Positions 44,908 through 61,354 of a stretch of DNA of 64,000 nt are shown here, in pieces. Each line of letters begins with the position of its first letter. Position 1 is the stretch's first letter. The DNA is from Gammaproteobacteria bacterium (GTDB lineage Bacteria > Pseudomonadota > Gammaproteobacteria > UBA4575), in the NCBI GenBank assembly GCA_965222615.1, contig CBDCUI010000007.1, forward strand, positions 544,001 through 608,000, written 5' to 3'. Under the pieces are notes generated by a model. The model had not been told where the DNA came from, ran no database searches, and saw nothing but the letters and a program-made list of their open reading frames with translations. The position numbers and the translations under genes are program-made.

Positions 44908-45705
44908 TTTTTTACACGCGGCTTGACTGTGTTTGTCAAACCTTAAGTCTCCTCAGCTCCTCTATTTGCTTTATCTTTTTATAAAAATTTAACTTTGTAA
45001 AGTGAAATTACAGTTTTACTTCCACATTCTATCGCTTGATTATTACCTTTTATTTTTTCAACTTAGTAAATTATTGAGTTGATGTTAATTTATTATTTTG
45101 TAAATAAAAGAAAACAAACCCTAGTATTAATTATTAATTAGTTGTCGTGCTAACAACGGTCATTCAATACATTTGAGTATTAATACACTGAATATTCTTA
45201 GTTTTAAAAATAACTATGTGTAATAGTCAAATACAGTTTAATATTATTTATTTCCTGGACCTTTGAACGTTCAGACTTATGGAATGGCCCACGTGCTGGG
45301 GTGCGTGTAGATAGCGATATGTATTTGAGTGCTGAATGTATTGGGATATGATGTTTGTATACTTAGGAATATTTTCTGATTGGCCCGCTAGGGTGGCTTA
45401 TTTATGCAAACTGTATGGGAACTCGATAAAACGGTGAGCGTTTAAAAGCATAACTTATTGTAATAGAAGATATTTTTTAAAGTGTCACTGGTTTGTTAAG
45501 GATGATTGATTAGTGACTGAAGATCCCAAAACCTACTCATACAAGTGCACAAAAATATCCAAACTACCCATACACAGATGAATTGATCTTCAACACTAGT
45601 ACACCATTCATCCGAATAAATCATCCGTTTAACTCTGAAGATATTAGTTACCCTATTATTTTTAATTTACGCTGTAACCTTGTAGAGGAGAACAGGGGTT
45701 TTTTT

Positions 45706-45909
45706 ATGTCGAGCAGCAAGGAGCGACGCTCAGGTATAGACCGTAGACAAGCGCCCAAAATTAGATATTTTCCAATTTTAGATTCTAAAGGTCGTTACAT
45801 TAAACGCGATCGTAGAAGTGGTCTCGAGCGACGTGTAAATTCACATGCTACACATCAATTCATGCCAGCCAATGAATATTTAGCTCCGTTAGCAGAGTTT
45901 CAAGACTAA
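45706..45909 (+). CDS. small Arg-rich protein with [DE]RR repeats
   Basis: MSSSKERRSGIDRRQ..RDRRSGLERR; purine-rich RBS upstream; ORF track starts at 45583. Confidence 0.6.
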   Translation: MSSSKERRSGIDRRQAPKIRYFPILDSKGRYIKRDRRSGLERRVNSHATHQFMPANEYLAPLAEFQD

Positions 45910-45928
45910 TCGTTTTATCTTGCAAAAA

Positions 45929-46591
45929 TCACAGGTGTCCGGTTTTAACAAAAATTACACAGCCTTCTCTAGTAAATGGCGTGTGACAACTGTTTGGTGG
46001 ATTTCTTAACCAAGTCCCGGTTGGGTAACTACCCATTTCATCTTCAAAAGTCCCTTCGAGAACAAATATTTCCTCACCACCAATATGTGTATGCGGTTGA
46101 AACACCGTATTGGCCTCCCACTTTACTAACGCAACATGTTCCCCATTGTATTCATGCAAAGGCATGACTTTTAAACCTTCTACTAAGCCAGGAAGCCAAG
46201 CTTGTTGTTGTGTTTGAATATTTAGTCGACGGTTATCGTTTGCCTGAAACTGCTGTAGCTTCACCAATATGGTACAACCCTGTTCACTATATGGCGCGTG
46301 ACTAGAGCCAGCTGGATTCCGCAAATAACAACCGGCATGATAATCTCCATGGTTATCGGAAAAAGTACCCTGTAATACGAATATTTCCTCGCCATTAACG
46401 TGTTTATGCGGTGGGAAAGAGCTACCCGGTAAATATCGCACTACAGTGGTCACAGGTTCAGAATCACCTTTTAATCTTTCCAGGCGCTTGCGTAACACCC
46501 CCTCTGCCTCGGAAGTCTCCCATTCCATATGCTCTGTCTGCAAAACTACACGCTGGCTGCGATCTGCATTAAGTTCTTGTATGGTTTCCAT
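45929..46591 (-). CDS. ChrR-like tandem cupin protein
   Basis: Two HxHxxGEEIFVLxGTFxD..YxRNPxxSxHxP repeats. Confidence 0.92.
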   Translation of the reverse strand: METIQELNADRSQRVVLQTEHMEWETSEAEGVLRKRLERLKGDSEPVTTVVRYLPGSSFPPHKHVNGEEIFVLQGTFSDNHGDYHAGCYLRNPAGSSHAPYSEQGCTILVKLQQFQANDNRRLNIQTQQQAWLPGLVEGLKVMPLHEYNGEHVALVKWEANTVFQPHTHIGGEEIFVLEGTFEDEMGSYPTGTWLRNPPNSCHTPFTREGCVIFVKTGHL

Positions 46592-46623
46592 GCCTGAATA
46601 ATTTATTATCTAATCTAATAAAA

Positions 46624-47112
46624 ATGCGCTCGTCTTCTTACAAAATTTGGTTGTTACTATTAATTCTATTAGCAGCAATTTTGCTTGCTATAGGTTTAGT
46701 CGCGCCGATTATTACTTTTAAAAAATTTATCTTTATTCAAAATACATTTTCTATACTTAGTGGGACTTGGCAACTTTTACAAGACGGACAGTTGTTTTTA
46801 TTTGTAATCATTACATTATTTAGCATCATTTTACCAATATTTAAGCTCGGCTTACTTACCAAACTGACATTTAGCTCAGATGCTATTAGCGCAAGTAGTG
46901 AAAAAACTTTAGCGCTGATACATCGAATAGGCAAATGGTCGATGTTAGACGTATTTGTCGTAGCAATACTTGTGGTGGTAGTAAAGCTAGGTGCAATAGC
47001 AGATGTCGAAAAACATATCGGCCTATATGCCTATGCGTCGGCGGCAATTTTGATCATGTTAATTACTAACACCATAGTCAAAATGAAAGAAGCTAACATC
47101 GAGGAAAAATAA
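46624..47112 (+). CDS. pqiA: paraquat-inducible protein A domain
   Basis: FSILSG, IGKWSMLDVFVVA; single domain. Confidence 0.88.
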   Translation: MRSSSYKIWLLLLILLAAILLAIGLVAPIITFKKFIFIQNTFSILSGTWQLLQDGQLFLFVIITLFSIILPIFKLGLLTKLTFSSDAISASSEKTLALIHRIGKWSMLDVFVVAILVVVVKLGAIADVEKHIGLYAYASAAILIMLITNTIVKMKEANIEEK

Positions 47113-47617
47113 TATGCTTAAACTAATAAAATATTCGCTACTGATTAGCATTTAGCAAAAATCAGGAACTTTGATTCGAAATCAAATTTGATTTAGAACT
47201 TGCTTGGAAATGGCATGAAAAATTAGAGGGGTGCCTTCCTTGGCTTTGGGGACTTCCTTACATTTATATGACAGTATTTCTTATTTTTAGTTCGCCGTAA
47301 TTCTCGAATAAGCTTTAACATCCGTGTTACATTTTCCTATTAAAATAAACTGCATGCCCACGTATAAAAGACCGTGGCATTAGTAATATTATTACTGATG
47401 ATTTTTAACCGCTATCCTGTATATGCCTGAATAAGGTACGAAAACTAAGGTTTTGTTAAGTTTACAATCTGTGTAGGAACTTATTCATTCACAGGCTTGT
47501 CATAGAGTTACAACTTTATTTGCCCTTCGTAATCCCAATTGCAGTATAGTGTGGACTTTAGCAAGTCTAAATGCCTGATAGGCTTGATTGTTTAAGCTAT
47601 AAGATGAATTTAGGAAT

Positions 47618-48355
47618 ATGGTGTATCGGCTAATATTTGTACTTGTTGTTGCGATAGGTATAGGAGCCTGCAGTAGCTCCTCGTCTGTCGGCCTGCCTAA
47701 AATCCCCAGTCCTTCATCCAGTGAACCACAAACTAGCTCTGAAGCAGCCGAAAAACAAGCCAAACAAACTGAACAAAGCAAGCCCTCTAAACAAGCAGAC
47801 AGTTCCAGCAGTAAAGAACAACAAGACGAGGCACCAGCAAGTGCTCAGACCGAAGAAGAAAAAGTAGCGGTACTCGACAAACAACTGGAAGAGGAATTGC
47901 GAAGTTACGATGAAGAATTACACAAAGAGCTAGAAAAAGCTGAAGCAGAAAAACAAGCTCAAGCTGCAGAACAAGAAGCCAAACAACAAGCCGAATTAGA
48001 ATCAGCAGAAGACGAAGCCATGGAAGAGGCTGGCGACACTGGTGAAGAACAGGAGTCTGGCCAACAAGGTGAACAAGTTGCTAAGGCGGGTTCACCCACC
48101 GCTGAACCTTCAGCCGATAGTGATGCAGGTGAGAACAGCCAATCAAGCACTGGAACACAAGACAAAGGCGCTACTGGTAGAACCCCAAAAGATATCCCAA
48201 GTGGTGACGATGATGATGTTGTCGCACGACAACTAAGAGAGGCAGCAGAAAAAGAACCTAACCCTGAACTTCGAGAAAAACTATGGGAAGAATATCGTAA
48301 ATATAAAAAACAACAAGCAAGTGTTAGTGCTCCAACCCCTAACGTAGAAAAATGA
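47618..48355 (+). CDS. acidic low-complexity lipoprotein
   Basis: Lipobox IGAC; S/E/Q-rich body; ordered C-terminal DIPSGDDDDVVARQLREAA..LWEEYRKYK. Confidence 0.8.
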   Translation: MVYRLIFVLVVAIGIGACSSSSSVGLPKIPSPSSSEPQTSSEAAEKQAKQTEQSKPSKQADSSSSKEQQDEAPASAQTEEEKVAVLDKQLEEELRSYDEELHKELEKAEAEKQAQAAEQEAKQQAELESAEDEAMEEAGDTGEEQESGQQGEQVAKAGSPTAEPSADSDAGENSQSSTGTQDKGATGRTPKDIPSGDDDDVVARQLREAAEKEPNPELREKLWEEYRKYKKQQASVSAPTPNVEK

Positions 48356-49536
48356 ACAAACAAGCAAGCCTTTTTCATCTTTTATTATTAATTCTCATTA
48401 GCAGCTTTCAGTTCAGCGGCTGTGCAACAAATACAGTAAAAGTTGATGGTGCAGAAAAAATAGAAACTGAAACTGTACAGTTACAAGAAGACAACTTGTT
48501 AGACGTGGGTATATTGTTGTTCGAAAAAGGTGAAATAACTGAAAAGCAAGAAGAAGATGAAGGCGTGCATGAAGACATACGTAAAGCCGAAGCACGTTAT
48601 ATGGCTTATCACCTTAAAGAAACGATGCAACGCGCCAATGGCTGGGGGGCCATTCGTGTGTTACCAACGGAATCGCAAATAGCCGATGTGATTGTACGCG
48701 GTACAATTATTTCCTCTAACGGTGAAGAATTAATAGTAAAAATGAACATCGTTGATAGCACAGGTCAGTTATGGTTTGAAAAAACCTATAAAACTGCTGC
48801 CGATGAAGAATCTTATCGTTATGCAAAACCTGGCAGAGATGTTTATCAACATGTTTATAACCGTATAGCAAATGACATACGCAAACATCGAAAAAAATTA
48901 ACCGAAAAAGAAACTATCACGATTAGAAATACTTCTGAATTGCGCTATGCAGCAGGCCTTTCACCCGATCCATTTGCAAACTATATTGATTCTGGTCCAA
49001 ATGGACAAAACACTATTGCACGATTGCCCGCTTCTAACGACCCAATGTTAAATCGCGTGCGTAAAGTTAGAGAACGTGAGTTTTTATTTGTTGACACTAT
49101 AAATGAGCATTACTCAAACTTTTACAATGAAATGTGGGACCCTTATGAGAATTGGCGAAAGTTTTATTTAATAGAAGCTGAACAACGACGTGAAGTAGAA
49201 CGACGCGCTAATCAAACAAAATTTATTGCTGCAGTGGTAATGATAGCAGGTATCTTTAGAGGGCCTGGTTTATTCACTACTGGAGCACTTTTATATAAAA
49301 ACGGAATGGATATAAGTAATGAAGCCGATATTCACGATGAGGCCATTCGTGAGCTCGGTGACTCTCTGCAGGCTGAAGTTAGCCCCTTGGTTGTAGAGAT
49401 ACAAGGACAAACTGTTGAGTTGACTGGTTCGATTGAAGAGCAATACCAGAAGTGGCGCAAGTTACTACGCGAAATTTATATTAATGAAACCGGTTTTGCC
49501 TTAGACGACAGCACAACAGAAAGCGCACAACTTTAG
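48352..49536 (+). CDS. lipoprotein of unknown function
   Basis: Lipobox FSGC; overlaps the previous stop (ATGA). Confidence 0.8.
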   Translation: MNKQASLFHLLLLILISSFQFSGCATNTVKVDGAEKIETETVQLQEDNLLDVGILLFEKGEITEKQEEDEGVHEDIRKAEARYMAYHLKETMQRANGWGAIRVLPTESQIADVIVRGTIISSNGEELIVKMNIVDSTGQLWFEKTYKTAADEESYRYAKPGRDVYQHVYNRIANDIRKHRKKLTEKETITIRNTSELRYAAGLSPDPFANYIDSGPNGQNTIARLPASNDPMLNRVRKVREREFLFVDTINEHYSNFYNEMWDPYENWRKFYLIEAEQRREVERRANQTKFIAAVVMIAGIFRGPGLFTTGALLYKNGMDISNEADIHDEAIRELGDSLQAEVSPLVVEIQGQTVELTGSIEEQYQKWRKLLREIYINETGFALDDSTTESAQL

Positions 49537-49589
49537 CTCGTGTGTTCTACGCGCGTAACCTAAGCGCACTAAACTGAATTTTAAAAACT

Positions 49590-49806
49590 TAAGGAAACAT
49601 TGATTTATTAGCGATAGCGACTGAGACTAGGCAAAAATGTCGAGACAAATTTGCCAGGAGCAAATTTGGGAGGCTCTGCTAGCCGCAGGCCGAGCACCAG
49701 GAAGGTGCGAGTCAAAGTAGAGTTTACACATTTGTTTGCGGCTTCGCCCGCCCCGCATTTTGAGACATTTTTTAACGATGGATCAGAATAAATTAGAGTT
49801 TGCTTA
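49590..49806. mobile_element. MITE, ~217 bp, with nested GGA-loop hairpins
   Basis: Ends TAAGGAAACATTGATTTATT and (reverse complement) TAAGCAAACTCTAATTTATT; no ORF; same ends elsewhere in the window. Confidence 0.7.
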
Positions 49807-49828
49807 GTCTGGTTTGCACCTGGGTGCT

Positions 49829-51352
49829 ATGGAAAAACAAGATCCCACTCCTATTGAAGCGATTGACTTTACATCGCTAAACAAACATACAGAAAAAACT
49901 AAACCTGCTGAACAGATATCGGTAGGTAAAAACTCTAAATTGTGGTTGGCTTTTTTACTTCTCATCACCTGTGCTATTGGAGTATTTGTATTTCTGCCAA
50001 ACTTTGTACCAAAAAAGCAAGTTACGATTTCTCCTCCATCAAATACACCCATCGAAGCAGAACAAACACCAGAAATAACTGAACCTATAATAGAAGAATC
50101 TACAAAGTTATCAGCTGCAGAGCTAAGTAAACTCAAGGCTGAAACTGAGGAACTATTACTTCAAGTAATCAAGAAACAGGAATTACTACAGTCAAAAGGG
50201 ATTGAAAAATGGGCCAAGGAAGAATTCTCACAAGCTAGTTCTTATGCAACAACAGGTGATGAATATTTTCGTAAACAACAATATCCAGATGCAATAAATT
50301 CCTACCAACAAGCCATCGATGCCTTGCAACTCTTAGAAGATAATGTTGCACCCACCTTAGCCAAACACTTAGAGCAAGGTGAACACGCATTATTACAAGC
50401 CAATCGTGAAACAGCATTGTTTCATTTTGAGCTTGCTCAGGCGATTGACGCAGAAAACACACAGGCACTTAATGGTATAAAACGTGCTGAAACCATTGAA
50501 GAGCTATTTAAATTATTAGAACAGGGTGGAAATCTAGAAGCCGCAAATCGACTTGAAGATGCCAAACAAATTTATCAACAAGCCTTTGATTTAGATCCCT
50601 TATCCATTGAGGCAAAGACCGCAATTGCAAGAGTCTCAAAGCGTCTAGTTGAAATCAAATTCACTCAATTAATTGCGTCAGGCTATAGCTCTTTGGAAGC
50701 TAAGCAATTTAATGATGCACGCAAAGCATTCCTAGCCGCACAGAAACTAATGCCATCTTCCGAAAAAGCTAAGCAGGGTTTAAAAAAAGTAGCAACTGCA
50801 GTTCGCCGAGAGAAAATTTCCACTTTGACGGTTGAAGCTCAACATTTTGAAAACCTTGAAGAGTGGGAACATGCAATGCAAAGCTACCAACAGATTCTCA
50901 GCCTAGACTCGGCTTCCTCATTTGCGCAAAACGGTGTTGAACACAGTCAAAAACGAGCTGCTCTATTGCGAAATCTCGACGACTATCTCAAAAACCCTGA
51001 ACGATTATATTCTGAAGACGTTGCCAAAGAAGCAGGGAACTTATTAAATAAGGTTGCATCTTTACAAACACCTGGTGTGAAAATTTTGCAACGAGCTACC
51101 ACATTAAAAGAATTATTGGCTAGTGCCAGTCAGCCAGTCTCCATTATTTTACAGTCAGATAACCAAACCGATGTAGTAATATTTAAGGTTGGAAAGTTCG
51201 GTCGTTTTGAAAGTCATAAAGTAGAGCTTAAACCTGGTAAATATACTATCGTTGGATCGCGACCAGGATATCGAGATGTTAGAAAAGTGTTAACGATTAC
51301 TGCTGACATGACAAACAAAAATATTTTAGTTCGTTGCGAGGAACCAATATAA
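49829..51352 (+). CDS. membrane-anchored TPR protein with C-terminal PEGA-like domain
   Basis: One TM, several TPR-like helix pairs (YQQAFDLDP, YQQILSLD), C-terminal LKPGKYTIVGSRPGYRD. Confidence 0.8.
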   Translation: MEKQDPTPIEAIDFTSLNKHTEKTKPAEQISVGKNSKLWLAFLLLITCAIGVFVFLPNFVPKKQVTISPPSNTPIEAEQTPEITEPIIEESTKLSAAELSKLKAETEELLLQVIKKQELLQSKGIEKWAKEEFSQASSYATTGDEYFRKQQYPDAINSYQQAIDALQLLEDNVAPTLAKHLEQGEHALLQANRETALFHFELAQAIDAENTQALNGIKRAETIEELFKLLEQGGNLEAANRLEDAKQIYQQAFDLDPLSIEAKTAIARVSKRLVEIKFTQLIASGYSSLEAKQFNDARKAFLAAQKLMPSSEKAKQGLKKVATAVRREKISTLTVEAQHFENLEEWEHAMQSYQQILSLDSASSFAQNGVEHSQKRAALLRNLDDYLKNPERLYSEDVAKEAGNLLNKVASLQTPGVKILQRATTLKELLASASQPVSIILQSDNQTDVVIFKVGKFGRFESHKVELKPGKYTIVGSRPGYRDVRKVLTITADMTNKNILVRCEEPI

Positions 51353-51396
51353 ATTTTCAAGTTCTACTGCAAATAATTAACTACGTGTAATAGGAA

Positions 51397-53799
51397 ATGA
51401 TTAAACAAGTATGTGTAACGGATATTGGTGGGCCAAGATTTTATACTCATGCAGATTTTCCTCTTGCGATTGGGACGCACCCTGGGGCTGATATTCACAT
51501 CGAAAGCGACAATTCATCCTCACCTATTGCCTTTTTAATCATTATTGTCAATCGCACTTATATTGAAACGGAAAACAACTATGCCGATATATTAATTAAT
51601 AATGAGCGTGTAGTCGGCCAGCAAGAATTGCAGCATGACGATATCTTGCAAATTGAAAATACAACATTTCATTGTGAGCATATCGGCGACACTCTTTCTA
51701 TTTCTCTATATGATGATCAAGAGCATCTTGTTGCAACTGATCATGATGTTGCCTCTCACGGTGATTTAATTGAGCCAATTGAATTAAAAGAAGCATACCA
51801 AATACCAAAAAAGAACAAACTGGCTCGTTTATTATCAATTTTAGTTTTATTAGTTTTTGCGCTACTAGCTTTAGTCATTGGTTATATCTTTACAGCAAAA
51901 TCTCTATTAATCGAAATTGAACCGAAGCCAGACAGTGTTGCTTTAAGTGGAAAAATCTGGCCTTTAAAAATTAAGCACCGATACATCGTACAACCTGGAA
52001 AATATGCATTAGAAGTAAAAAAATCAGGTTATTACCCATTACAAGAGGAAATTAAAGTCACTCACCATCAAGCGCAAAGCCTATCCTTTGCGCTGAAAAA
52101 AAAGCCCGGTTACTTAAAAATAAATAGTCACCCCAGTGATGGTGTTCGTATTCTCATTGATGAAAAGGAATATGGAACCACGCCACTGGAAGAAATTGAG
52201 TTAGATGCTGGCTCTTATTCCGTACAAGCCTCTATTGATGATTATCAACTCTATACCACCCAGCTGGTCGTCGAAGGTAAAGAGCAACACCAAGAATTAA
52301 GCATAGAGCTGCTACCAAATTGGGCTGAAATATCGATTAACTCCAAACCTGGTAATGCTGAAGTTTGGATAAATGGAATGAACAAAGGCACCACGCCTTT
52401 GAAGCTAGATTTGCAAGCAGGTAGTTATACATTGGAACTACGTCATTCAGATTATTTACCCTATACATCTGATTTCTTAGTGGTTGCAAACGAACCTCAA
52501 GAATTGCCCTTAGCTGAGTTATTTAGCAACCCTAGTCATTTAGTCATCACTAGCGTCCCCTCTAAAGCCAAAGTATTACTGGCAGGTATTGAACAAGGCA
52601 TAACACCTTTAACTTTACGTTTAAACCCAAATACTGAACATTCTTTAACACTTAGCAGAGCCGGATTTAGGGATAATCAACAAACTGTTTTATTGAAACC
52701 AGGAGAACAGTCAACGCTTTCTGCTGAACTTGAAGCAATATTAGGGACAGTAGTATTCAATATACAACCGCAGGACTCTGAAGTATTTATTAATGGTAAA
52801 TTTACTGGTAGCGGTAACGTAAAACTTTCGCTCCCGAGTAGTCCACATAGAATAGAGGTTAGAAAGTCAGGTTATGAAGTTTTTGAAAAAATGATTACAC
52901 CTACAGCAGACTCGCCACAAATATTTGATGTGGTCTTAAATCGTATCACTAGTGCCACCAAGACCGATAAACCTAGTTTGATCCAAACTAGTCAGGGACA
53001 GGAATTAAAATTAATTTTTGGTGGCAAATTTTCTATGGGTGCTGCACGTCGTGAACAGGGTCGCCGTTCCAATGAAACTCTACACACCGTTGATCTACAG
53101 AGGCCTTTTTATATAAGTACAAATGAAGTTTCCAATGCACAATTTTTAGAGTTTAACCGCACACATAACTCTGGAATCTATAAAGGTAATGATTTATCTA
53201 GATCAAACCTACCGGTTGTGAATATAGAGTGGAATGATGCTGCAAAATATTGTAATTGGCTGAGTGAAAAAGAAGGTTTAGATAAGGTGTATAAACAAGA
53301 AGGTAATCAGTTAAAAGCCATCCATCCCATTCCTAACGGTTATAGGCTACCAACAGAAAGTGAATGGGAGTGGGTTGCACGCGTACAAGCTAGTGGCAAT
53401 ACACAAAGGTATATTTGGGGAGATACCTACCCGCCAAAGCAAGTTGTCGCGAACTTCGCCGATGTGTCAGCGGCAACGATATTAGATAGCGTAATCGAGG
53501 ACTACGATGATGGTTTCGCCATCAGTGCTCCGGTAAGAAGCTTCAAGTCTAATCACTTGGGAATTTTCAATCTAGGCGGTAACGTAGCAGAATGGTGTCA
53601 CGACTATCACAGTATTTACCCCAGCTTAAGTGACAAAGTATTTGTCGATCCCAGTGGTCCTTCGACAGGGGTAAATCACGTGATACGTGGTGCCTCTTGG
53701 ATGAGTGGAGATTTAAGTAGTACTCGCTTGAGTCACCGAGACAGAGCCAACAAAAAACGTGTTGATGTTGGCTTCCGTATCGCTAAATACATAGACTAA
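51397..53799 (+). CDS. FHA-like / TM / PEGA repeats / FGE-sulfatase-domain protein
   Basis: 4-5 PEGA repeats (INSKPGNAEVWING..GTTP); FGE motifs EVSNAQF, PVVNIEW, YRLPTESEWE, GNVAEW, GFR. Confidence 0.88.
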   Translation: MIKQVCVTDIGGPRFYTHADFPLAIGTHPGADIHIESDNSSSPIAFLIIIVNRTYIETENNYADILINNERVVGQQELQHDDILQIENTTFHCEHIGDTLSISLYDDQEHLVATDHDVASHGDLIEPIELKEAYQIPKKNKLARLLSILVLLVFALLALVIGYIFTAKSLLIEIEPKPDSVALSGKIWPLKIKHRYIVQPGKYALEVKKSGYYPLQEEIKVTHHQAQSLSFALKKKPGYLKINSHPSDGVRILIDEKEYGTTPLEEIELDAGSYSVQASIDDYQLYTTQLVVEGKEQHQELSIELLPNWAEISINSKPGNAEVWINGMNKGTTPLKLDLQAGSYTLELRHSDYLPYTSDFLVVANEPQELPLAELFSNPSHLVITSVPSKAKVLLAGIEQGITPLTLRLNPNTEHSLTLSRAGFRDNQQTVLLKPGEQSTLSAELEAILGTVVFNIQPQDSEVFINGKFTGSGNVKLSLPSSPHRIEVRKSGYEVFEKMITPTADSPQIFDVVLNRITSATKTDKPSLIQTSQGQELKLIFGGKFSMGAARREQGRRSNETLHTVDLQRPFYISTNEVSNAQFLEFNRTHNSGIYKGNDLSRSNLPVVNIEWNDAAKYCNWLSEKEGLDKVYKQEGNQLKAIHPIPNGYRLPTESEWEWVARVQASGNTQRYIWGDTYPPKQVVANFADVSAATILDSVIEDYDDGFAISAPVRSFKSNHLGIFNLGGNVAEWCHDYHSIYPSLSDKVFVDPSGPSTGVNHVIRGASWMSGDLSSTRLSHRDRANKKRVDVGFRIAKYID

Positions 53800-53803
53800 A
53801 GAT

Positions 53804-54046
53804 ATGAAAACTCAAAAAACCCTATTACTTATACTTATATCATTTGTATTTTATACAAGTAACCATTTTGCAATCGCAGAAGAAGCTACTACAGAAAAAA
53901 ACCAAGACACAGTTGAAGATGAAAGCACTACTGCTAGGCCAAAAATCAGTTCAAAGAAACGCAGCGAAGTTAAAAATTTGGAAGAATTTATTCCAAGTGA
54001 AGAAGTCTCCGCAGATAAACCAATTTCTTTCCCAATAGATATCTAG
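53804..54046 (+). CDS. small secreted protein
   Basis: Signal peptide, flexible linker, C-terminal EEFIPSEEVSADKPISFPIDI. Confidence 0.75.
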   Translation: MKTQKTLLLILISFVFYTSNHFAIAEEATTEKNQDTVEDESTTARPKISSKKRSEVKNLEEFIPSEEVSADKPISFPIDI

Positions 54047-54052
54047 TTAATA

Positions 54053-54850
54053 ATGAAAAAACATTATCCCTTTGAGTTTATATATCAAGTTTTTAGCTTA
54101 TTGATAATTGTAATCATTGTACATGCTGCATATGTCGCAGTAATTCGTCCTAATGCCGAAGCCGAACTGGAACAACAAGCTGCACAAATTAATATAGACA
54201 AAAACTATGTGCCAAAGCGTTCAATATATGTGTTGATACGCGACTATGAGCAAGAAGCATGTTTCATTCTAATGTTTTGGGCATTAGTAATTATGTCTTA
54301 TAAAGCAGCTAATTTATTTCGCGAACGCAGCTTACTTGAAAAAGACATATTACATGCCAAAGATGGCATGAAATTTTTACCACAAGACACACGCGAATTA
54401 TCCAGACAAATACAAAATCTACCTGAAGAAGAACATAATTATTTACTACCGCGTGCATTACAAGTTGCTCTACATAGATTTAGCTCCACGAAAAATATCC
54501 AAGACGTTTCATCAGCAACTAATATAGTTTGTGAATCAGAATCAGAACGTCTTGACTCTGAGTTATCAATTATCCGTTACATCACTTGGGCAATTCCCTC
54601 CATAGGATTTCTAGGAACCGTTCGTGGCATTGGTGATGCACTTGGACAAGCGCATAAAGCAGTAGAAGGAGATATAGCTGGTGTAACAGAAAGCTTAGGT
54701 GTGGCATTTAATTCAACACTTATTGCTTTGTGCATTAGTATATTCTTGATGTTTATTGTGCATCAGTTACAACTCCTACAAGAGAGGTTTATTTTAGATA
54801 CACAAAATTACTGCAACAACAATTTAATACGCCACCTACAAGTTCCATAG
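54053..54850 (+). CDS. MotA/TolQ/ExbB proton-channel family protein
   Basis: WAIPSIGFLGTVRGI and LGVAFNSTLIAL motifs with conserved Pro/Thr. Confidence 0.92.
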   Translation: MKKHYPFEFIYQVFSLLIIVIIVHAAYVAVIRPNAEAELEQQAAQINIDKNYVPKRSIYVLIRDYEQEACFILMFWALVIMSYKAANLFRERSLLEKDILHAKDGMKFLPQDTRELSRQIQNLPEEEHNYLLPRALQVALHRFSSTKNIQDVSSATNIVCESESERLDSELSIIRYITWAIPSIGFLGTVRGIGDALGQAHKAVEGDIAGVTESLGVAFNSTLIALCISIFLMFIVHQLQLLQERFILDTQNYCNNNLIRHLQVP

Positions 54851-54860
54851 CATCAGATAT

Positions 54861-56201
54861 ATGACGGCTGTAGTTGTTGATTTATATGATAGTGGTGTAC
54901 TAATTTGCGATGGAAATCGTATTCTTGCCAATAGTGCAAGCTTCGCTTTAATTGAATCTGATAACACCATCATTGTTGGTGAAACTGCTCAACAACAAGC
55001 ACACATTCGCCCACGGGAAATCAGTACACAATTTTGGCAACAACTGTCAAAAACTAGTAATACCAAGCACGTTGTAAGCAATGCTGAGATTGCATGTAGG
55101 CATTTGCAATACGTATGGGAACAGATTGAAGATCAAGCATATCAAGTCATTTTAGCCATTCCCAATGTATTAACTAAGCAAGATTTAGGGCTATTACTAG
55201 GTATTTGCGAAAAACTTTGCATAGCCGTTGCTGGCATTGTCAGTAAATCTGTACTTGCCCTGCATGGATATGCAGATGACTGTCGTGTTGTTTACCTAGA
55301 TATTTTACAACAACAAATCATCATTACAGAAATACTGCATAAAAAATCAAGCATATCAACATCAGATTCCAATTTATTTATAGACAACGGTATTCAACAT
55401 TTAACAAATAACCTAGCAAAACACATTGCCAAGAAATTTATTGCTGAAACGCGTTTTGACCCCTTACATGTTGCAGAAGATGAACAACTCTTTTATGACA
55501 AATTAGCCATGTGGTTATACCAGTTAGAATCAAGTGACAGTATACAATGCAGTTTAAGTTCAAGCTCTGGCGAATACCATGTTGAGATTCATAAAGACTA
55601 CTTATTGCTCTGCAATAAGAAAACATTTGATGCTATTGCTAATAGTTTAATGTCATTTGCGCAGGATCAAAAAAATGTCCTTATCATTTGTTCACCTACA
55701 TGTTTATCAATATTTGGATTACTCGATCATTTAATGTCACTTCCTGGCTGTGCGGTAAAAACCCTAAGCCACATCGATTTAGCTAAGCAAGCATTGCTTT
55801 ATGAAAATCAGATTAGCGCCAAAAGTGCTCAAATACATTACACAACATCACTTACTGACCAGGATTTGGCTTCGCTTGATTTAAACTTTAATTCTGGATC
55901 TTTATCAGATTTAAACAAAAAGCCTACACATCTACTAATAAACCATCATGCATATTCGCTTTCACAAACAAATTATCTGGCACAAGATAAACAAGGAGAG
56001 ATAACTATAGGCCTAGAATGCAGTCAAAGTAGTGTATGCAAAATCACGATGAATCAATTTTTAGTAAATGTTGAAAAAACGCAAAATGTGAAGCTTCATT
56101 TAAATGGAGTTGAAATTACGCAGCAACAATCTGTACAAATCGGTGACCGTCTGAGTATCAACAAAGATACTAATGAGCTATTTTTTATTAATGTGAATTA
56201 A
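54861..56201 (+). CDS. degenerate Hsp70/actin-fold protein with C-terminal FHA-like domain
   Basis: VVVDLYDSG..SFAL..IIVGETAQQQA, ILAIP, VVYLDI; C-terminal LHLNG..VQIGDRLSI; fold inferred by eye. Confidence 0.55.
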   Translation: MTAVVVDLYDSGVLICDGNRILANSASFALIESDNTIIVGETAQQQAHIRPREISTQFWQQLSKTSNTKHVVSNAEIACRHLQYVWEQIEDQAYQVILAIPNVLTKQDLGLLLGICEKLCIAVAGIVSKSVLALHGYADDCRVVYLDILQQQIIITEILHKKSSISTSDSNLFIDNGIQHLTNNLAKHIAKKFIAETRFDPLHVAEDEQLFYDKLAMWLYQLESSDSIQCSLSSSSGEYHVEIHKDYLLLCNKKTFDAIANSLMSFAQDQKNVLIICSPTCLSIFGLLDHLMSLPGCAVKTLSHIDLAKQALLYENQISAKSAQIHYTTSLTDQDLASLDLNFNSGSLSDLNKKPTHLLINHHAYSLSQTNYLAQDKQGEITIGLECSQSSVCKITMNQFLVNVEKTQNVKLHLNGVEITQQQSVQIGDRLSINKDTNELFFINVN

Positions 56202-56202
56202 T

Positions 56203-57294
56203 ATGAAGCGAAGATCTGTCAATGCATTTAGTTTAGCTTTTTTGGATGTGATGTTTTGTGGATTTGGTGCGGTCATCCTATTTTTTATGATCATTAACGC
56301 TAATACTTATGAAAGAAGGGAAAAAATTAATGTTGTCGTTACTGGCGAGGCTGAAAAACTAGATGCTGAAGTTTTAGAAGGAAAAAAATTTCTTGTTGAG
56401 CTTAAAAACACACTGCAAAAAATAAATGAAGAGTTGGTGAAAACTCAAGGGCGCTCAAAAGAAGTCATTGAAAACATTACTGACAAAAAAGTTCAAATCG
56501 CACTACAACGCAAAGAAACCCTTGCTACGATCGAACAAATAAATAAGCTCAAGGCAGATTTAAAAGCACTTGAGGAGGCGAACCAGCGGCTAGAGGGCGG
56601 TGCTGCGAATGCACAATCACAAGGTGAACGGTTAAGATATTTTGCTGGGCAAGGGCAACGACAATATTTAACTGGCTTAAAAATGGGTGGCGAACGCATT
56701 TTGATTTTGGTTGATACATCCGCCAGTATGCTAGCAGATCGGATTATCAATATTTTACGTTTTCGCAATCTACCACAGACGGAAAGAATACGAGCAGCAA
56801 AATGGCAACAAGTATTGTACACCGTTGATTGGATCACTACGCGCATACCACCCTCTAGTAAATTTCAGATCTATACATTTAATGAGACCAGTTCGCCTGT
56901 TTATACAATAGAAGGTTCGCAGTGGTTAGACGGTGGCAATATTAAACATTTGAATACGGCTGTAGATAACTTCTTCGCAACTGCCCCAAATAAAGGGACA
57001 AGTCTATTAAATGCATTTCAGAGCATAAATAAACTTTCTCCACCACCCGATAACATTTATTTACTCACTGACGGGTTACCCACGCAAGGTGCGAACAAAT
57101 CAATTCGCTCAAAGATTAGCGCTAAGGATCGTAAAAAACTTTTTAATAAAGCCCTAAACAAACTGCCAACTGGCATACCCATTAATATAATTTTATTCCA
57201 TATGGAAGGAGATCCAGAGGCATCAAGCTTGTATTGGAAACTCGCGCAAAGATCCAATGGCGCATTTTTCAGTCCTTCCAAAGATTGGCCTTAG
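56203..57294 (+). CDS. ExbD-like TM, coiled coil and VWA domain protein
   Basis: FSLAFLDVMFCGFGAVILFFMI; MIDAS DTSASM; GTS; LLTDGLP. Confidence 0.85.
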   Translation: MKRRSVNAFSLAFLDVMFCGFGAVILFFMIINANTYERREKINVVVTGEAEKLDAEVLEGKKFLVELKNTLQKINEELVKTQGRSKEVIENITDKKVQIALQRKETLATIEQINKLKADLKALEEANQRLEGGAANAQSQGERLRYFAGQGQRQYLTGLKMGGERILILVDTSASMLADRIINILRFRNLPQTERIRAAKWQQVLYTVDWITTRIPPSSKFQIYTFNETSSPVYTIEGSQWLDGGNIKHLNTAVDNFFATAPNKGTSLLNAFQSINKLSPPPDNIYLLTDGLPTQGANKSIRSKISAKDRKKLFNKALNKLPTGIPINIILFHMEGDPEASSLYWKLAQRSNGAFFSPSKDWP

Positions 57295-57302
57295 TAAGAA
57301 AA

Positions 57303-58310
57303 ATGAAAAAACGTAGAAATATAGAAATATTTAACCTGTCTTTCTTAGACTGTGTTTGCTGCGGGTTCGGCGCACTTATACTGCTATTAGTACTATCAAA
57401 AACTGCAGAACCGATTATCTTCGAAGAGTACAGTAAGAATTTAGACAAGGTCGTAGCTAAACTTCATGAAGAACTCTATGAAATACGTGGTGAAACTCAT
57501 ATCCTGAACCGCGAATTGGTGAGCAAGAAAGAACAGCTTGCCCTTGAAGTTGAAAAGATCGCACGCCTGCAAGGTGATTTATCCTCTATTCTAGGACAAT
57601 TTTCGGCGTCAAAAGATGATGCAGTCATACAAAATAAAATTGAAGGACAACTTGCATCAGCTAAGCAGGATCTCACTGAAGAAATACGCCGTTTACAAGA
57701 ACAAGAGTTGCCACAACGCAGTGAGCCAGATGCCACTGTTGGAGGAATCCCTATTGATAGTGAATATATTATTTTTATTATCGATACATCTGGAAGTATG
57801 CAAAATCACGGTTGGGGCACTGTGCAACAAAAACTCCGTGAAGTATTAAATGTGTACCCAAAAGTAAAAGGTATGCAAGTGATGAATGACATGGGTGAAT
57901 ATATGTTTTCACAGTACACTGGTAAATGGATTCCAGATACGCCTGCGCGACGCAAAGTAGTGTTAAAACGTCTACGTAATTGGCAACCATTTAGTAACAG
58001 TAGTCCAGTTGAAGGAATCACGGCTGCAATACGAACTTTTTACTCTAAAAACAAAAAAATTAGTTTATACGTATTTGGCGATGAATTTACTGGCCCATCG
58101 ATACAATCTGTACTGCGCGAAGTAGACCTTATCAATAAAAAAGACAAATTTGGAAATCGTCGTGTTCGTATTCATGCAGTAGGCTTTCCTATTCAATTCA
58201 GTCGACCAGAAAGAGAACAAATTACTGGAATTCGGTTCGCCACGTTAATGCGTGCCCTGTGTGAACAAAACGGTGGAACATTTGTTGGATTGACTTCTCA
58301 TAGCCGTTAG
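57303..58310 (+). CDS. second ExbD-like TM, coiled coil and VWA domain protein
   Basis: FNLSFLDCVCCGFGALILLLVL; MIDAS DTSGSM; VFGDEF; RIHAVGF; ATG 57303 preferred. Confidence 0.85.
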   Translation: MKKRRNIEIFNLSFLDCVCCGFGALILLLVLSKTAEPIIFEEYSKNLDKVVAKLHEELYEIRGETHILNRELVSKKEQLALEVEKIARLQGDLSSILGQFSASKDDAVIQNKIEGQLASAKQDLTEEIRRLQEQELPQRSEPDATVGGIPIDSEYIIFIIDTSGSMQNHGWGTVQQKLREVLNVYPKVKGMQVMNDMGEYMFSQYTGKWIPDTPARRKVVLKRLRNWQPFSNSSPVEGITAAIRTFYSKNKKISLYVFGDEFTGPSIQSVLREVDLINKKDKFGNRRVRIHAVGFPIQFSRPEREQITGIRFATLMRALCEQNGGTFVGLTSHSR

Positions 58311-58326
58311 AGAGGTTATTCAAACT

Positions 58327-58483
58327 TAAGGGGTCTCTGATTAATTCAGAGGTTCTGCGATACAAGGACTTGCCACCAAAATCGATGATCACAGACCGTT
58401 GATTTTGAAAGCAACGTAGAAATCACATTTTTTTACATTGCATGCGCTGAGAATTCATGAATGAATTATGCAGAGCTTCCTTA
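58327..58483. mobile_element. MITE, ~157 bp
   Basis: Ends TAAGGGGTCTCTGATTAATTCA and (reverse complement) TAAGGAAGCTCTGCATAATTCA. Confidence 0.7.
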
Positions 58484-58605
58484 ACAATTTAGCAGCGACT
58501 AGTTTACTGCTGCATATTGTGATTAACTGATTGAAGTAACATAGTTTTATATTAATTCTTACTTTTTCTAGCAAAATAAACACGAAACCCCTAATTCATT
58601 TTATC

Positions 58606-59232
58606 GTGAGAAATATACCATTCACATCTTCAAAACCGTCTTATCTATTCAAGGAGTACAAAATGTCACCACTTAACGTTTATCAAATTTTGAATTTCAA
58701 ACGGTTGGGAAATTTTAAAAGTATTTGCGGCTTACTATGCCTAACATCGCTTATTTTAATTGCATGTGGTGGAAACAATAATGAAACACCTGCTACAACT
58801 GAAGAATCTACAACTTCTTCTGTTCAAGTAGAACAAGCTAGCGACAGTGATATTGTCGCAGAGGTACATGCCAATAAAGAAAAATGGTTATCAAATGAAA
58901 TTAAACAGTATGAAATTGAAATACAGAAAATATGTTTTTGTGAACCAGATGCTGTTCGTTTAATGATATTCCATGTAGAGAATAATGAAATACAAGATGT
59001 ACGTTATGCAGATTCTGGTGAACAGGTAGATCCTAGTCATTATAACGAATTAAACACAATAGAAGGAATGTTTACATTAGTGGAACAAGCATTAGATAAA
59101 AACCCTGCAGATATTAGCATTGCTTATGATACAGAGTATGGTTACATTAAAGAACTTACTGTTGATTACCATGAAAATATAGCGGACGACGAGTTCACAT
59201 TTATTGCTTCTAATATGAAACAGAAAAAATAA
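58606..59232 (+). CDS. lipoprotein (DUF6174-like)
   Basis: Lipobox LIAC; W...I..Y...CFC, TIEGMF, YD..YGY, IADDE; start may be 58663. Confidence 0.75.
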   Translation: MRNIPFTSSKPSYLFKEYKMSPLNVYQILNFKRLGNFKSICGLLCLTSLILIACGGNNNETPATTEESTTSSVQVEQASDSDIVAEVHANKEKWLSNEIKQYEIEIQKICFCEPDAVRLMIFHVENNEIQDVRYADSGEQVDPSHYNELNTIEGMFTLVEQALDKNPADISIAYDTEYGYIKELTVDYHENIADDEFTFIASNMKQKK

Positions 59233-59261
59233 TTAAAATAAATTTATGGGTTGAGCTTTGT

Positions 59262-61295
59262 ATGAAAAAAATTTTTTTAGCTATAGTATTTATTTCACTA
59301 TTTACCCTTTTAAGTACAGCCCATTCCAACCAAACTCTCCCTATAGAAATAAATGGTGAAAGTTATCAAATTAAGTATTGGCCTAGCTATTTCGCTAAAG
59401 AACTAGATATAAATTACGTAGGTACTGATAAAGCTGATGCAGATAAAATAGATATCAGTTTTTATCGTGGCGAAGTCGTTGGTCATCCGGATTCACTGGT
59501 CACTCTTTCTAAAGCCGGTGATGATTTAAATGGCTTAGTATTCTTTTATGGTGAATACCATGAGATTGCTGGCACCATGTCTAAGTTAAATAATCAGTCA
59601 AACACTTCTATGCGAAGTGCAAAAATCCAGATCGCAGATATGGCGAAAAATGTGACACAAGAAATGTGCCCGATTCATACCCATGAACACCAAGAAATGC
59701 AAGCGACTGCTATGGTAACCATGGATACGAACACGAATGGTTTGCCTCCCATTGCATTTGCAGTTGGTAATGTAAATTTGGTCGCCGATGTTGCTTTGGC
59801 TTTAGACCCACAATATGTTTCCGTACATGGTGGCGCGACGAATGCTGTAATTAGAGCATTAGGAACGCTTGATAGGGCTGATATGTTTTATCGTCAAAAC
59901 AAACCCGCTACGGGGGCAGGTGGCTTGGGCATCGCGCTTAATAATGTAAGTGTCAATGTATACGCCAATACATTACCGTTTAATGTTGCCGATATCATCG
60001 ACGCCAGTCCCGATCTCAGTAACGGCTCGCGTCCTGAAATAGACGCCACCGCATATTTAACTAGAATTCAAGCTAACGGTGCAGCATTGTTTGGAAACAC
60101 ACGTACCGTAGGGGCCATGTTTAGTGGTTATGACTTAGACGATACTACTGTAGGTGATGGCGTCGCAGGACTGGCTTTTATTGCAACCACTTGTAGCAAT
60201 CTAGGTGTGAGTGTTTCAGAGGGTTGGGGTACCGAGGCCGCATCTGCTGTAATCACCGCACATGAAATTGCCCATAATTTTGGATCTTGTCATGATGGAG
60301 ACGGTATCCTAAATGCAGGACTAAATCTCTGTCCGGTTACCTCTGTTACTTGCCCTGCGAATGGTGGTTTTATTATGGCGCCATTTGTTAATGCGGTTGC
60401 TACACAATTTTCGCAGTGCTCTATTGCTAATATCGATTCTCACGCAAATCTACAAACCTGTTACAAACAGCCTATCGATATGCAAATTAGCTTACAAAAT
60501 GTTACCCCTGCCGTTAACAATACATTAAATCAAGGTGGCACAAGTGTACGAACATTTAGTGTAAGTAATATGGCTGATGTAATCCTCAGCAATATTAATA
60601 TCTCTGGCACATTAGCAAATCTTAGTGATCCCAATAATCCCAATACACAATATAGTGCAGTCACCTTAGAAGGCAACGCCTGTAGCATTGCGGCAAATGC
60701 TCAGTCTTATATTTGTTCGATTCCAACCATTGGTGCCAACAATGCCGATGTTCAACAAATCGTCGAAACCGTCACAGCTATAGGTACTGGCCAATATAAA
60801 TCTACAACCGAATACCGAAATGTCGTTGCCAATCAGCAAGTAGACATCGAACCACAAAATAGTATTGTAGAGCTAACGCAAGTTATTAATGTAAATGCGG
60901 CGGCTGCACCTCCTGCAGCACCGAGTAATGTACAAGCCATCGCATTATCCACTGGAGACATTCAAGTAAGCTGGACCGATAACAGTAACAATGAGGCTGG
61001 TTTTATTATTGAACGTAGTGAAGATGCGGGCGTAATGTATACGGTTATTCAAAATAACATTGCGGCAAATACTACAAGCTATGTAGACACCAATCTTGTT
61101 GAAGGCACGACCTATACGTACCGCGTCTCGGCAAGTAATAACATGGGCGCAGTAGTCGCAGCTAGTACACCAAGTGCTACCTCTTCTACCAACGCTGTTA
61201 TTTCTTCTGGTGGTGGTGGCGGAGGAGGTGGTGGTGCTTTTTATATTTTGTCATTGTTTTTGTTACTAGCACGAACTTTAACAAGGTCTAAATAA
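59262..61295 (+). CDS. M12B reprolysin-like zinc metalloprotease with FN3 and GlyGly-CTERM
   Basis: AGLAF, HEIAHNFGSCHD, Met-turn FIMAP, FN3 SWTDNSNNEAGF, GGGGGGGGAF-TM-basic tail. Confidence 0.9.
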   Translation: MKKIFLAIVFISLFTLLSTAHSNQTLPIEINGESYQIKYWPSYFAKELDINYVGTDKADADKIDISFYRGEVVGHPDSLVTLSKAGDDLNGLVFFYGEYHEIAGTMSKLNNQSNTSMRSAKIQIADMAKNVTQEMCPIHTHEHQEMQATAMVTMDTNTNGLPPIAFAVGNVNLVADVALALDPQYVSVHGGATNAVIRALGTLDRADMFYRQNKPATGAGGLGIALNNVSVNVYANTLPFNVADIIDASPDLSNGSRPEIDATAYLTRIQANGAALFGNTRTVGAMFSGYDLDDTTVGDGVAGLAFIATTCSNLGVSVSEGWGTEAASAVITAHEIAHNFGSCHDGDGILNAGLNLCPVTSVTCPANGGFIMAPFVNAVATQFSQCSIANIDSHANLQTCYKQPIDMQISLQNVTPAVNNTLNQGGTSVRTFSVSNMADVILSNINISGTLANLSDPNNPNTQYSAVTLEGNACSIAANAQSYICSIPTIGANNADVQQIVETVTAIGTGQYKSTTEYRNVVANQQVDIEPQNSIVELTQVINVNAAAAPPAAPSNVQAIALSTGDIQVSWTDNSNNEAGFIIERSEDAGVMYTVIQNNIAANTTSYVDTNLVEGTTYTYRVSASNNMGAVVAASTPSATSSTNAVISSGGGGGGGGGAFYILSLFLLLARTLTRSK

Positions 61296-61354
61296 CAAGC
61301 ACTTTATTAAGCTTAATTTCCACTTTCTAAATAACTACTTTTGATTAAAAGTAG

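Follow-up and report, generated by a model that had tools for sequence, protein, structure and literature searches.

What is built around an ion-channel subunit of the TolQ/ExbB/MotA family when two proteins with von Willebrand factor A (vWA) heads stand in place of ExbD/TolR and six further proteins are encoded alongside? This question is raised by nine genes, g1 to g9, at positions 47618-58310 of a 64,000-nucleotide stretch of DNA from a gammaproteobacterium of lineage UBA4575 (assembly GCA_965222615.1, contig CBDCUI010000007.1, positions 544,001 to 608,000), which we refer to as the window; all coordinates below are window positions on the forward (+) strand unless a locus is named. Flagella, gliding, type 9 secretion, nutrient import, the stability of the outer membrane, and one phage-defense system all run on ion motors of the 5:2 kind, and with each new set of motor partners a further means of carrying energy through the periplasm has come to light. 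In the present case, force would be transmitted by a subunit that is itself a pair of adhesion-type heads and that comes with six further proteins as a fixed set; the carriers span at least four phyla, mostly uncultured marine and sediment bacteria. An earlier, sequence-only reading of the window had proposed an uncharacterized motor reaching from the cytoplasm to the outer membrane. We find that the nine genes are a real operon conserved across several phyla, and we think it rather probable that their products form one envelope-spanning machine around an ion-driven motor of the TolQ/ExbB/MotA kind.

The nine genes form a conserved operon

The nine open reading frames (ORFs) are co-oriented, and ORF calls, Pfam searches, family profiles, and translations agree with the domains that the sequence-only reading had named in them. 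The spacings from g1 to g9 are -4, 277, 44, 4, 6, 10, 1, and 8 nt, and because all eight junctions except that of 277 nt are tight, a single transcript is possible. A promoter and terminator scan was uninformative on operon structure (21 promoter-like and 10 terminator-like signals, with 39.4 and 9.5, respectively, expected from shuffled sequence), and an Rfam search of 44000-62000 returned no family.

A homology scan with one genome per species gave 573 relatives, and 80 loci were kept for comparison, all of them in metagenome-assembled, uncultured, or symbiont genomes. They come from Gammaproteobacteria (including Thiotrichales and Methylococcales), Thermodesulfobacteriota (Desulfobacterales and others), Acidobacteriota (Holophagae, Vicinamibacteria, Thermoanaerobaculia, Ca. 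Marinacidobacterales, and Ca. Sulfomarinibacter), Myxococcales, and Kiritimatiellia, and a Brocadiaceae protein is found among the g8 homologues; in the homologue list consulted for the distant subfamily described below, the only cultured name is Sneathiella sp. P13V-1, at 37% identity. Among the 49 loci with at least 9 kb of upstream sequence, tblastn finds g1-g2-g3-g4-g6-g7-g8-g9 colinear on one strand in 45, and the same order in loci of several phyla is far beyond chance, bearing out the expectation that the gene order would prove conserved. The four exceptions are L039 (which lacks g1), L043 (lacking g7), L047 (lacking g1 and g2), and L059 (in which g1 to g4 are inverted downstream). Across phyla, tblastn identities are 52 to 93% for g6, 55 to 90% for g9, 45 to 77% for g8, and 22 to 56% for g7, the motor parts g6 and g9 being the most conserved of the nine proteins. 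All-against-all clustering of the flanking ORFs yielded no further conserved gene family, the remainder being antisense shadow ORFs or clusters of a few loci, and no kinase, barrel, or peptidoglycan binder recurs in the flanks beyond the nine genes.

At E <= 1e-20, g9 is found in 21 of the 301 genomes sampled from the host class and in 20 of 271 genera, a count that includes the unpublished genome G039; at E <= 1e-30 it is matched by 336 cluster representatives among 1.84 billion. A distant subfamily, at about 30 to 40% identity, has the composition g1-g2-g3-g4-g5-g6-g8-g9, without g7 (L089-L091, L094, and L096), and one genome, G191, carries two copies of the system, one of this g7-less type (L094) and one with g7 (L095). 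In L093, g6 is displaced to the end of the cluster. A further locus, L099 (genome G275, 1372-4352), contains only g6-g8-g9, and g1 to g4, g5, and g7 were not found in the 12.6 kb beyond g6; it is either a bare motor core or has its partners encoded elsewhere.

A channel with two vWA partners

The product of g6 (54053-54850, 265 aa) is a channel subunit of the TolQ/ExbB/MotA family and matches PF01618 (MotA_ExbB) at 54.9 bits, well above the curated threshold of 22.9. Residues invariant in comparison with the TolQ and ExbB proteins of the same genome are P182, G185, G188, T189, and G192 in the second transmembrane (TM) helix and A218, T222, L226, and I230 in the third, of which we take T189 and T222 to form the functional threonine ring, following PMC12204202. 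The same alignment reveals extra cytoplasmic insertions in the g6 channel.

The partners of this channel are encoded by g8 (56203-57294) and g9 (57303-58310, with its start at ATG 57303 in an ORF that opens at TTG 57234), which share one architecture: a short basic tail, a putative trans-pore helix of the form F-S-L-x-F-L-D-x-x-x-C-G-F-G-A, a coiled coil of about 110 residues, and a vWA head. The helix comprises residues 9-31 of g8 (56227-56295), with Asp15, and residues 10-31 of g9 (57330-57395), with Asp16, and it resembles the Asp-bearing helices of the TolR and ExbD proteins of the same genome. The metal-ion-dependent adhesion site (MIDAS) of the head reads DTSAS in g8 (residues 171-175) and DTSGS in g9 (residues 161-165). 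Family alignments identify as invariant F9, L11, F13, D15, C19, G20, G22, A23, D171, S173, S175, T266, and D290 of g8, and S13, F14, L15, D16, C20, G21, F22, G23, D161, T162, S163, G164, S165, and D260 of g9; among these, T266 and D290 of g8 and D260 of g9 are additional positions of MIDAS type. No ExbD or OmpA domain was matched in either protein in Pfam or NCBIfam, the coiled coil and vWA domain being in its place. Judged by their 32% identity over residues 2-176, g8 and g9 are old paralogues, and they are always paired: the pair family is present in 79 of the 80 loci (162 ORFs), with one copy in the host genome. More than 5,000 g8 homologues were found among the candidates scored, nearly all of them unnamed or annotated as 'VWA domain-containing'.

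Elsewhere, the host genome encodes canonical TolQR, three ExbBD loci, and a MotAB/PomAB-like pair, and the nine-gene cluster is therefore an additional system; the proposal of a distinct gene set on a MotA/ExbB-family channel, with two vWA proteins replacing ExbD/TolR, is upheld. Another atypical stator-like pair lies in the same genome (L007, G000:C8:643563-646781), where a 258-aa ORF weakly matching MotA_ExbB (E 8e-10) precedes a 202-aa ORF with an ExbD/TolR-like Asp-bearing N-terminal helix and, after it, a 170-aa membrane ORF.

A core of this kind is already in print. In its section on a computationally predicted 'TPH-vWA' class, PMC12204202 (Mol Biol Evol 2025, msaf138) describes TM-tethered vWA proteins that occur in heterologous pairs, tightly linked to a tolQ-like gene and without tolR/exbD; AlphaFold 3 models given there place the two Asp residues of the vWA pair inside the Thr ring of a pentamer. 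The seed of the class is from Idiomarina, its function is given there as unknown, and that section reports no phenotypes. Because the core is described there with structure models, the motor idea is not new. The assertion of the sequence-only reading that no characterized system has this composition stands as far as PADLOC, NCBIfam, Pfam, and the literature are concerned, and gives way for the motor core, which that section had predicted; the accessory set, the motifs, and the clamp described below appear to be undescribed.

A predicted clamp and variable kinase and FHA modules

The cytoplasmic protein g7 (54861-56201) has no Pfam match from its sequence alone. A profile of 60 homologues searched against the PDB detects the nucleotide-binding domain (NBD) of Hsp70 at residues 80-296 (Ssb1, 5e-5) and an FHA domain at residues 357-448 (Ki-67, 1e-5; also EmbR and Rv0020c). 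The AlphaFold2 model is confident (predicted local distance difference test [pLDDT] 92.5, predicted TM-score [pTM] 0.86), and its best Foldseek matches are Hsp70s (E 1e-17), with target-normalized TM-scores of about 0.66 to 0.68 to isolated NBDs. Profile and model together delimit an Hsp70-NBD-like region (residues ~1-340) and an FHA fold (~357-446), the latter lying where Hsp70 has its substrate-binding domain, so that the earlier assignment of g7 as an Hsp70/actin-like protein with FHA agrees with three lines of analysis. The D-x-G phosphate-1 motif is kept. In the columns that we take to be the phosphate-2 loop, going by what is generally known of Hsp70 loop motifs, the glycine-rich loop is absent and the region reads LDxxLxx, which makes ATP use doubtful.

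Complex prediction suggests what g7 may hold. When g7 was modeled with residues 1-130 of the inner-membrane protein g4, the interface score ipSAE (interaction prediction score from aligned errors) was 0.67 (0.70, 0.67, and 0.64 in separate runs), and the best of three controls scored 0.00; between runs, 64% or more of the contacts recur, and the partner has a pLDDT of at least 70. The mark used for this score is reached by 58 of 80 solved complexes and by 2 of 110 mismatched pairs, counts that are approximate here, our own alignments having been used. The predicted docking site is a juxtamembrane peptide of g4, DVASHGDLIEPIEL (residues 117-130, 51745-51786), which contacts g7 at residues 75-79, 102-118, 126, 166-171, and 324-330, overlapping the near-invariant L109, L111, L113, and G114; the FHA domain of g4 is not involved.

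The peptide corresponds to a motif, [IVL]-x-P-[IV]-x-[FYL], located 15 to 25 residues before the TM helix of g4. Of the 54 loci with g7, a regular-expression search finds it in 49 (a few off-register); it is present also in L093 and L095, and in none of the six loci without g7 (L043, L089, L090, L091, L094, and L096). Many g4 orthologues that lack the FHA domain keep the motif at their very N-terminus (e.g., L030 and L038). This co-variation, which does not depend on the structure model, supports the prediction that g7 clamps the g4 juxtamembrane peptide. At the g7 position of L092 (genome G052, 11136-12062) there is a 308-aa ORF without a Pfam match, and the adjoining g4 has V-V-P-R-P-Y before its TM helix; this ORF may be a very divergent g7.

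The FHA domain of g7 is canonical (G-x-S-R-x-H ... G-T-F-V-N) in Acidobacteriota, Desulfobacterota, and others, and degenerate in the window clade, where the g7 of the window lacks S-x-x-H. The TPR protein g3 varies as well. Its window version has no kinase, and its orthologues in several loci carry an N-terminal Pkinase domain in Pfam searches (L028, 3e-45; L054, 6e-41; L048, 3e-29; L059, 3e-22). Among the 51 loci that were judged, 21 have a g3 kinase, 18 of these with S-x-x-H in the g7 FHA domain; the 30 without kinase divide into 13 with S-x-x-H and 17 without, the latter including the ten nearest relatives (L009-L019, L033). Strict coupling of kinase loss to FHA decay is ruled out by the 13 kinase-less loci that keep S-x-x-H. 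Nonetheless, since the g7 FHA domain is canonical in most lineages and g3 is often a kinase, the motor is probably under phospho-control in most lineages, to judge from these domains; the window version has lost both the kinase and the FHA phosphothreonine motif and keeps the predicted clamp. Outside the cluster, at least seven kinases and ten FHA domains of canonical type are encoded in the host genome.

Two proposed inner-membrane arms

The g3 product (49814-51352, with ATG 49829 the likelier start) has a short cytoplasmic N-terminus, a TM helix at residues 43-61, and a periplasmic TPR region (TPR_2, 7e-11). Its C-terminal 90 aa weakly resemble PEGA/CarboxypepD_reg domains, below threshold in seven of seven proteins tested.

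The g4 product (51397-53799) combines a cytoplasmic FHA domain and linker, a TM helix (residues 145-165), and periplasmic PEGA and formylglycine-generating enzyme (FGE)-like domains; Pfam reports PEGA at 9e-55 in five stretches and FGE-sulfatase (PF03781) at 5.8e-42. The N-terminal FHA domain is visible only to a family profile of 32 sequences (EssC FHA, 1.3e-4; GarA, 4e-4; Rv1747), Pfam calling Yop-YscD_cpl in 12 of the 32 and FHA in 9, and it is divergent in all lineages. The FGE-like domain is highly conserved, with a mean column identity of 51% across 12 sequences from several phyla, and matches solved FGEs at 2.6e-25 and PorK at 2e-11. In the alignment with solved FGEs (6muj and 2q17), however, both of the positions whose cysteines we take to be catalytic are serine in g4, and no cysteine is conserved at them in 12 g4 homologues. 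The lack of this pair rules out g4 as an active FGE and argues that the domain is a binding module. The comparison with GldK/GldJ made in the sequence-only reading is accordingly apt in that the domain is noncatalytic, and fails in that its sequence is closer to true FGEs than to PorK.

Two lipoproteins and a small secreted protein

The remaining three genes encode proteins without a Pfam match. The g1 product (47618-48355, 245 aa) is an acidic, low-complexity putative lipoprotein with the lipobox IGAC at residues 15-18, and it has homologues at the equivalent position in 51 loci. Alignment of these identifies a 33-residue C-terminal motif, DDDVVARQLREAAEKEPNPELREKLWEEYRKYK in the window (residues 198-230, 48209-48307), which is nearly unchanged as DDDIVARQLREAAExExDPxLREKLWxEYxxYK in loci of several phyla.

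The start of g2 (48352-49536, 394 aa) overlaps the g1 stop by 4 nt. Its lipobox is FSGC, with the Cys kept in the consensus of 49 homologues; it has no PDB profile match either (best E 0.43), and its Atlas clusters contain only 'hypothetical protein' entries. An AlphaFold2 model (pLDDT 81.4) shows an N-terminal alpha/beta domain, a long helical hairpin, and a small beta unit. The closest fold matches of the N-terminal domain are a flagellar LPHT-ring chain (Z 9.2, 177 residues aligned, root-mean-square deviation 5.2), DUF330 (Z 8.9), PelC (Z 8.3), the TolB N-domain (Z 8.0), and CsgG (Z 7.7), with Foldseek E values of 1e-4 to 1e-2; values of Z under 8 are common by chance in such comparisons, and the modeled domain weakly resembles ring-forming periplasmic or lipoprotein folds. 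The tip of the hairpin is hydrophobic (FIAAVVMIAGIFRGPGLFTTGALLY, residues ~291-315, 49222-49296) and, in the model, could serve membrane insertion or form an oligomer core. A PADLOC match of g2 to PDC-S05 (E 0.0035) was treated as chance.

The g5 product (53804-54046, 80 aa) is small and acidic, with a signal-peptide-like N-terminus, and ends in FIPSEEVSADKPISFPIDI-COOH (53987-54043). BLAST finds matches to it only in near relatives. A pattern search, however, locates in 54 of 55 loci a g5-type small ORF in the interval from g4 to g6; the remaining locus (L082) has a close variant. The shared end is F-x-P-[ST]-E-x-[IVL]-x-x-[DE]-x-x-[IV]-x-[FY]-P-x-D-I-stop; the form used for searching, F-x-P-[ST]-...-[FYL]-P-x-D-[IVL]-stop, occurs 67 times when the 80 loci are translated in all six frames (2.46 million codons). 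In the distant L089-L091, g5 has 41 to 47 residues and ends in ...SPxxFPxDI. TPR domains and MIDAS sites bind ligands of the type that a free and conserved acidic C-terminus presents, and the ...FPxDI end of g5 is a likely plug-in ligand for one or the other.

A model of the machine and its alternatives

We propose that g6 forms the channel ring, into which one g8 and one g9 would insert their Asp helices in place of TolR/ExbD, as the sequences and the published AlphaFold 3 models suggest. Proton flow would turn or pull the resulting heterodimeric axle. Its coiled coil, about 16 nm long if fully helical, would lift the two MIDAS heads to about the height of the five PEGA domains of g4, and the heads, with intact adhesion sites, would grip an acidic ligand near the outer membrane. 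Around the axle, the arms g4 (five PEGA domains and the noncatalytic FGE/lectin-fold) and g3 (TPR and PEGA-like) would meet the lipoproteins g1 and g2 and the secreted g5 at the outer membrane, making up a scaffold and ligand set. On the cytoplasmic side, g7 would clamp the g4 peptide and present its FHA domain and, together with the kinase and FHA domain in most lineages, would switch or localize the motor.

Our best guess for the output is a Tol-Pal-like, force-dependent tethering or remodeling of outer-membrane or cell-wall components, in preference to motility or secretion. This is favored because the only outer parts are lipoproteins, no conduit, cargo, or surface adhesin is encoded, and purifying selection on the motor parts is strong. 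The sequence-only reading had suggested motility, adhesion, or transport, for which no direct support emerged: the cluster and its conserved flanks contain no Glt, type 9 secretion system (T9SS), or secretin homologue. More tentatively, and as a claim that we hold to be somewhat more doubtful than probable, the system would be a new class of envelope machine functionally apart from Ton, Tol, Mot, Agl-Glt, and T9SS, in which a 5:2 rotor bears MIDAS hands that in cycles seize and pull an acidic ligand (possibly g5 ...FPxDI or g1) at the outer membrane, gated by the Hsp70-fold clamp and, in most lineages, by kinase and FHA domain. If true, it would be the first stator-type motor under direct phospho-control; should regulation by kinase and FHA domain prove real, motors of this family would have gained a regulatory principle that is new to them.

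Four other explanations can be weighed against this machine. The cluster could act in trans-membrane sensing, with the periplasmic FGE/lectin-fold, TPR, and vWA domains detecting an envelope or external ligand and signaling through the g3 kinase, the FHA domains, and g7, while the TolQ-like unit only energizes or gates the process, as in TonB-dependent signaling. We consider this unlikely. It would account for the Hanks kinase-TM-TPR architecture of g3 in 21 of 51 loci, for the FHA domains of g4 and g7 and the predicted clamping of the g4 cytoplasmic tail, and for the lack of an encoded cargo or outer-membrane conduit; however, neither within the cluster nor next to it is a transcription factor or other output domain conserved, the highest conservation lies in the motor parts, and the kinase, the g4 FHA domain, and g7 are each dispensable in whole lineages, whereas the periplasmic parts of g1 to g4, g5, g6, g8, and g9 are kept.

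Surface motility or adhesion in the manner of Myxococcus Agl-Glt, with the motor driving vWA heads or lipoproteins coupled to the substratum, seems to us quite improbable, even though the FHA-TM architecture of g4 parallels that of GltG, TPR proteins are present, and a vWA adhesin, CglB, works in Agl-Glt. According to the part of PMC11761067 that presents an AlphaFold model of Agl-Glt, the AglR pentamer is the predicted binding partner of an FHA domain beside the GltG TM helix. Here, in contrast, the vWA heads are tethered to the inner membrane and not surface-exposed, and neither the TonB_C domains of GltG/GltJ nor the outer-membrane barrels GltA/B/H/K have counterparts among the nine proteins and conserved flanks; the host genome has a flagellar-type stator, and no motility gene is conserved in the flanks.

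A Zorya-type antiphage or conflict system would use the MotA-like motor to sense envelope perturbation, the vWA, FGE, FHA, and Hsp70-like modules acting as in nucleoside triphosphate-dependent conflict systems (Kaur et al. 2020). The patchy distribution in the host class, the two copies of different types in G191, and the weak ZorA match of g6 in PADLOC would suit such a role, and PMC7159879, in its passages on these domains, notes that vWA, FGS/FGE, FHA, and PEGA recur in conflict systems. Yet no effector (nuclease, protease, pore, or NTPase) is encoded and there is no other PADLOC match; identities of 45 to 93% and a gene order kept across phyla are unlike fast-evolving defense genes; and in near relatives the cluster sits in a stable chromosomal context, without neighboring mobile-element genes. 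We therefore regard defense as very unlikely. Least credible, and in our view highly implausible, is secretion or surface assembly by an analogue of the T9SS PorKLMN core, with an FGE-fold ring beneath the outer membrane that would be driven by the motor and a long periplasmic dimer: PorL/PorM do follow a motor-plus-periplasmic-dimer logic resembling that of the nine-gene system, GldK/PorK is the best NCBIfam match of the g4 FGE domain (7e-30), and the g2 fold resembles ring-forming lipoproteins, but the GldK score is far under its cut-off, true FGEs match better than PorK, g4 is anchored in the inner membrane and is not a lipoprotein, and the cluster has no PorL, PorM, PorN, or Sov homologue, secretin, barrel, or conserved cargo genes.

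Several points weigh against the envelope-spanning machine that we favor. First, its patchy spread (21 of 301 genomes) would suit an accessory better than a housekeeping role, and the VWA_2 matches of the window g8 and g9 in Pfam are weak, under the gathering cut-off. Second, we infer the outer-membrane site of g1 and g2 from their lipoboxes alone, and the span to the outer membrane proposed in the sequence-only reading from these and a weak fold match; the g2 fold matches are middling (Z 8 to 9, Foldseek E 1e-4). The output, too, is a guess, since the genes encode neither an outer-membrane barrel nor a domain for binding peptidoglycan, and no obvious cargo. Third, the interdomain linker of Hsp70 docks in the cleft where the g4 peptide is predicted to lie, and the g7-g4 score may partly echo this; the g7-less loci belong mostly to one distant subfamily, so that motif and g7 have co-varied in few independent events. 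Fourth, the association of kinase and FHA motif is imperfect, 13 kinase-less loci keeping S-x-x-H, and is confounded by relatedness. Finally, a literature search, which did not extend to the supplements of PMC12204202, found no paper that treats the nine genes as a set, the six genes outside the core, or an experiment with any member.

Neighboring genes

Directly downstream (58606-61295) are genes for a DUF6174 protein and an M12B/reprolysin-like metalloprotease with fn3, kept only in the nearest relatives (L009-L013). Upstream, separated from g1 by a 505-nt noncoding gap, is a PqiA-domain ORF of 162 aa (46624-47112) that is kept there in L010-L012 and L014. The conservation of all three only in nearest relatives rules them out as parts of the system.

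Comparison with known systems

The cluster is not a member of the Agl-Glt, T9SS, or Zorya systems or of the FGE enzymes, and none of the nine proteins reaches the cut-off of any NCBIfam model. The hallmarks of Zorya (a long-tailed ZorA, a ZorB with a peptidoglycan-binding domain, and ZorC/D or ZorE) were not found by PADLOC at E <= 0.001, where the only match is that of g6 to ZorA (1.2e-4) over the channel region. With the PorK/GldK-PorL-PorM-PorN core of T9SS the cluster shares an ion-driven motor, a long periplasmic dimer, and a noncatalytic FGE-fold protein near the outer membrane; the FGE domains of GldK/PorK are likewise reported to be noncatalytic. It differs in that g4 is TM-anchored, with PEGA repeats and no lipobox, and scores 104.6 bits with TIGR03525, for which the cut-off is 350; Pfam and NCBIfam give no match to PorL, PorM, or PorN among the nine proteins.

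The resemblance to Agl-Glt is one of plan: a TolQ/R-type motor in a trans-envelope complex with TPR and vWA proteins and an FHA-TM protein predicted to contact the motor side. The accessory proteins have no sequence homology to Glt proteins, however, and vWA is carried on the motor axle and not on an outer-membrane lipoprotein. In the PilM-PilN and FtsA-FtsN clamps, an actin/Hsp70-fold protein holds a short cytoplasmic peptide of a bitopic membrane protein. The g7 protein likewise has an actin/Hsp70 fold and is predicted to hold a linear motif before the g4 TM helix, but it is nearest to Hsp70 NBDs by fold, carries an FHA domain, and is without the glycine-rich phosphate-2 loop.

Closer still are ExbB-ExbD and TolQ-TolR, with which the cluster has in common a MotA_ExbB-family channel with the TM2 and TM3 Thr residues and a partner with one TM helix and an essential-type Asp near a short cytoplasmic N-terminus. 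Here, in contrast, the partners are two paralogues and not a homodimer, there is no ExbD/TolR periplasmic domain, and g6 has its extra cytoplasmic insertions. No TonB- or TolA-type transducer is encoded in the cluster, and Pfam and NCBIfam find no TonB_C, TolA, TolB, Pal, OmpA, or receptor domain in the nine proteins, as the sequence-only reading had maintained.

The nearest counterpart is the TPH-vWA class of PMC12204202, membership being judged here by described features. The section of that paper on the class matches our system in the tolQ-like gene, the heterologous TM-vWA pair, the absence of tolR/exbD, the Asp in the trans-pore helix, and the channel Thr; it makes no mention of g1 to g5 and g7, of the arm with FGE and PEGA domains, of the Hsp70-like protein with FHA, of versions with a kinase, or of the g5 and g1 motifs. 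To that core the present analysis adds a parts list, three short candidate docking motifs (the g4 tail, the g5 C-terminus, and the g1 helix), and a predicted clamp, all of them targets for point mutation in an operon of 'hypothetical protein' genes. The g7-less loci L089-L091, L094, and L096, in which tolQ adjoins the vWA pair, fit the description of the class given in that section.

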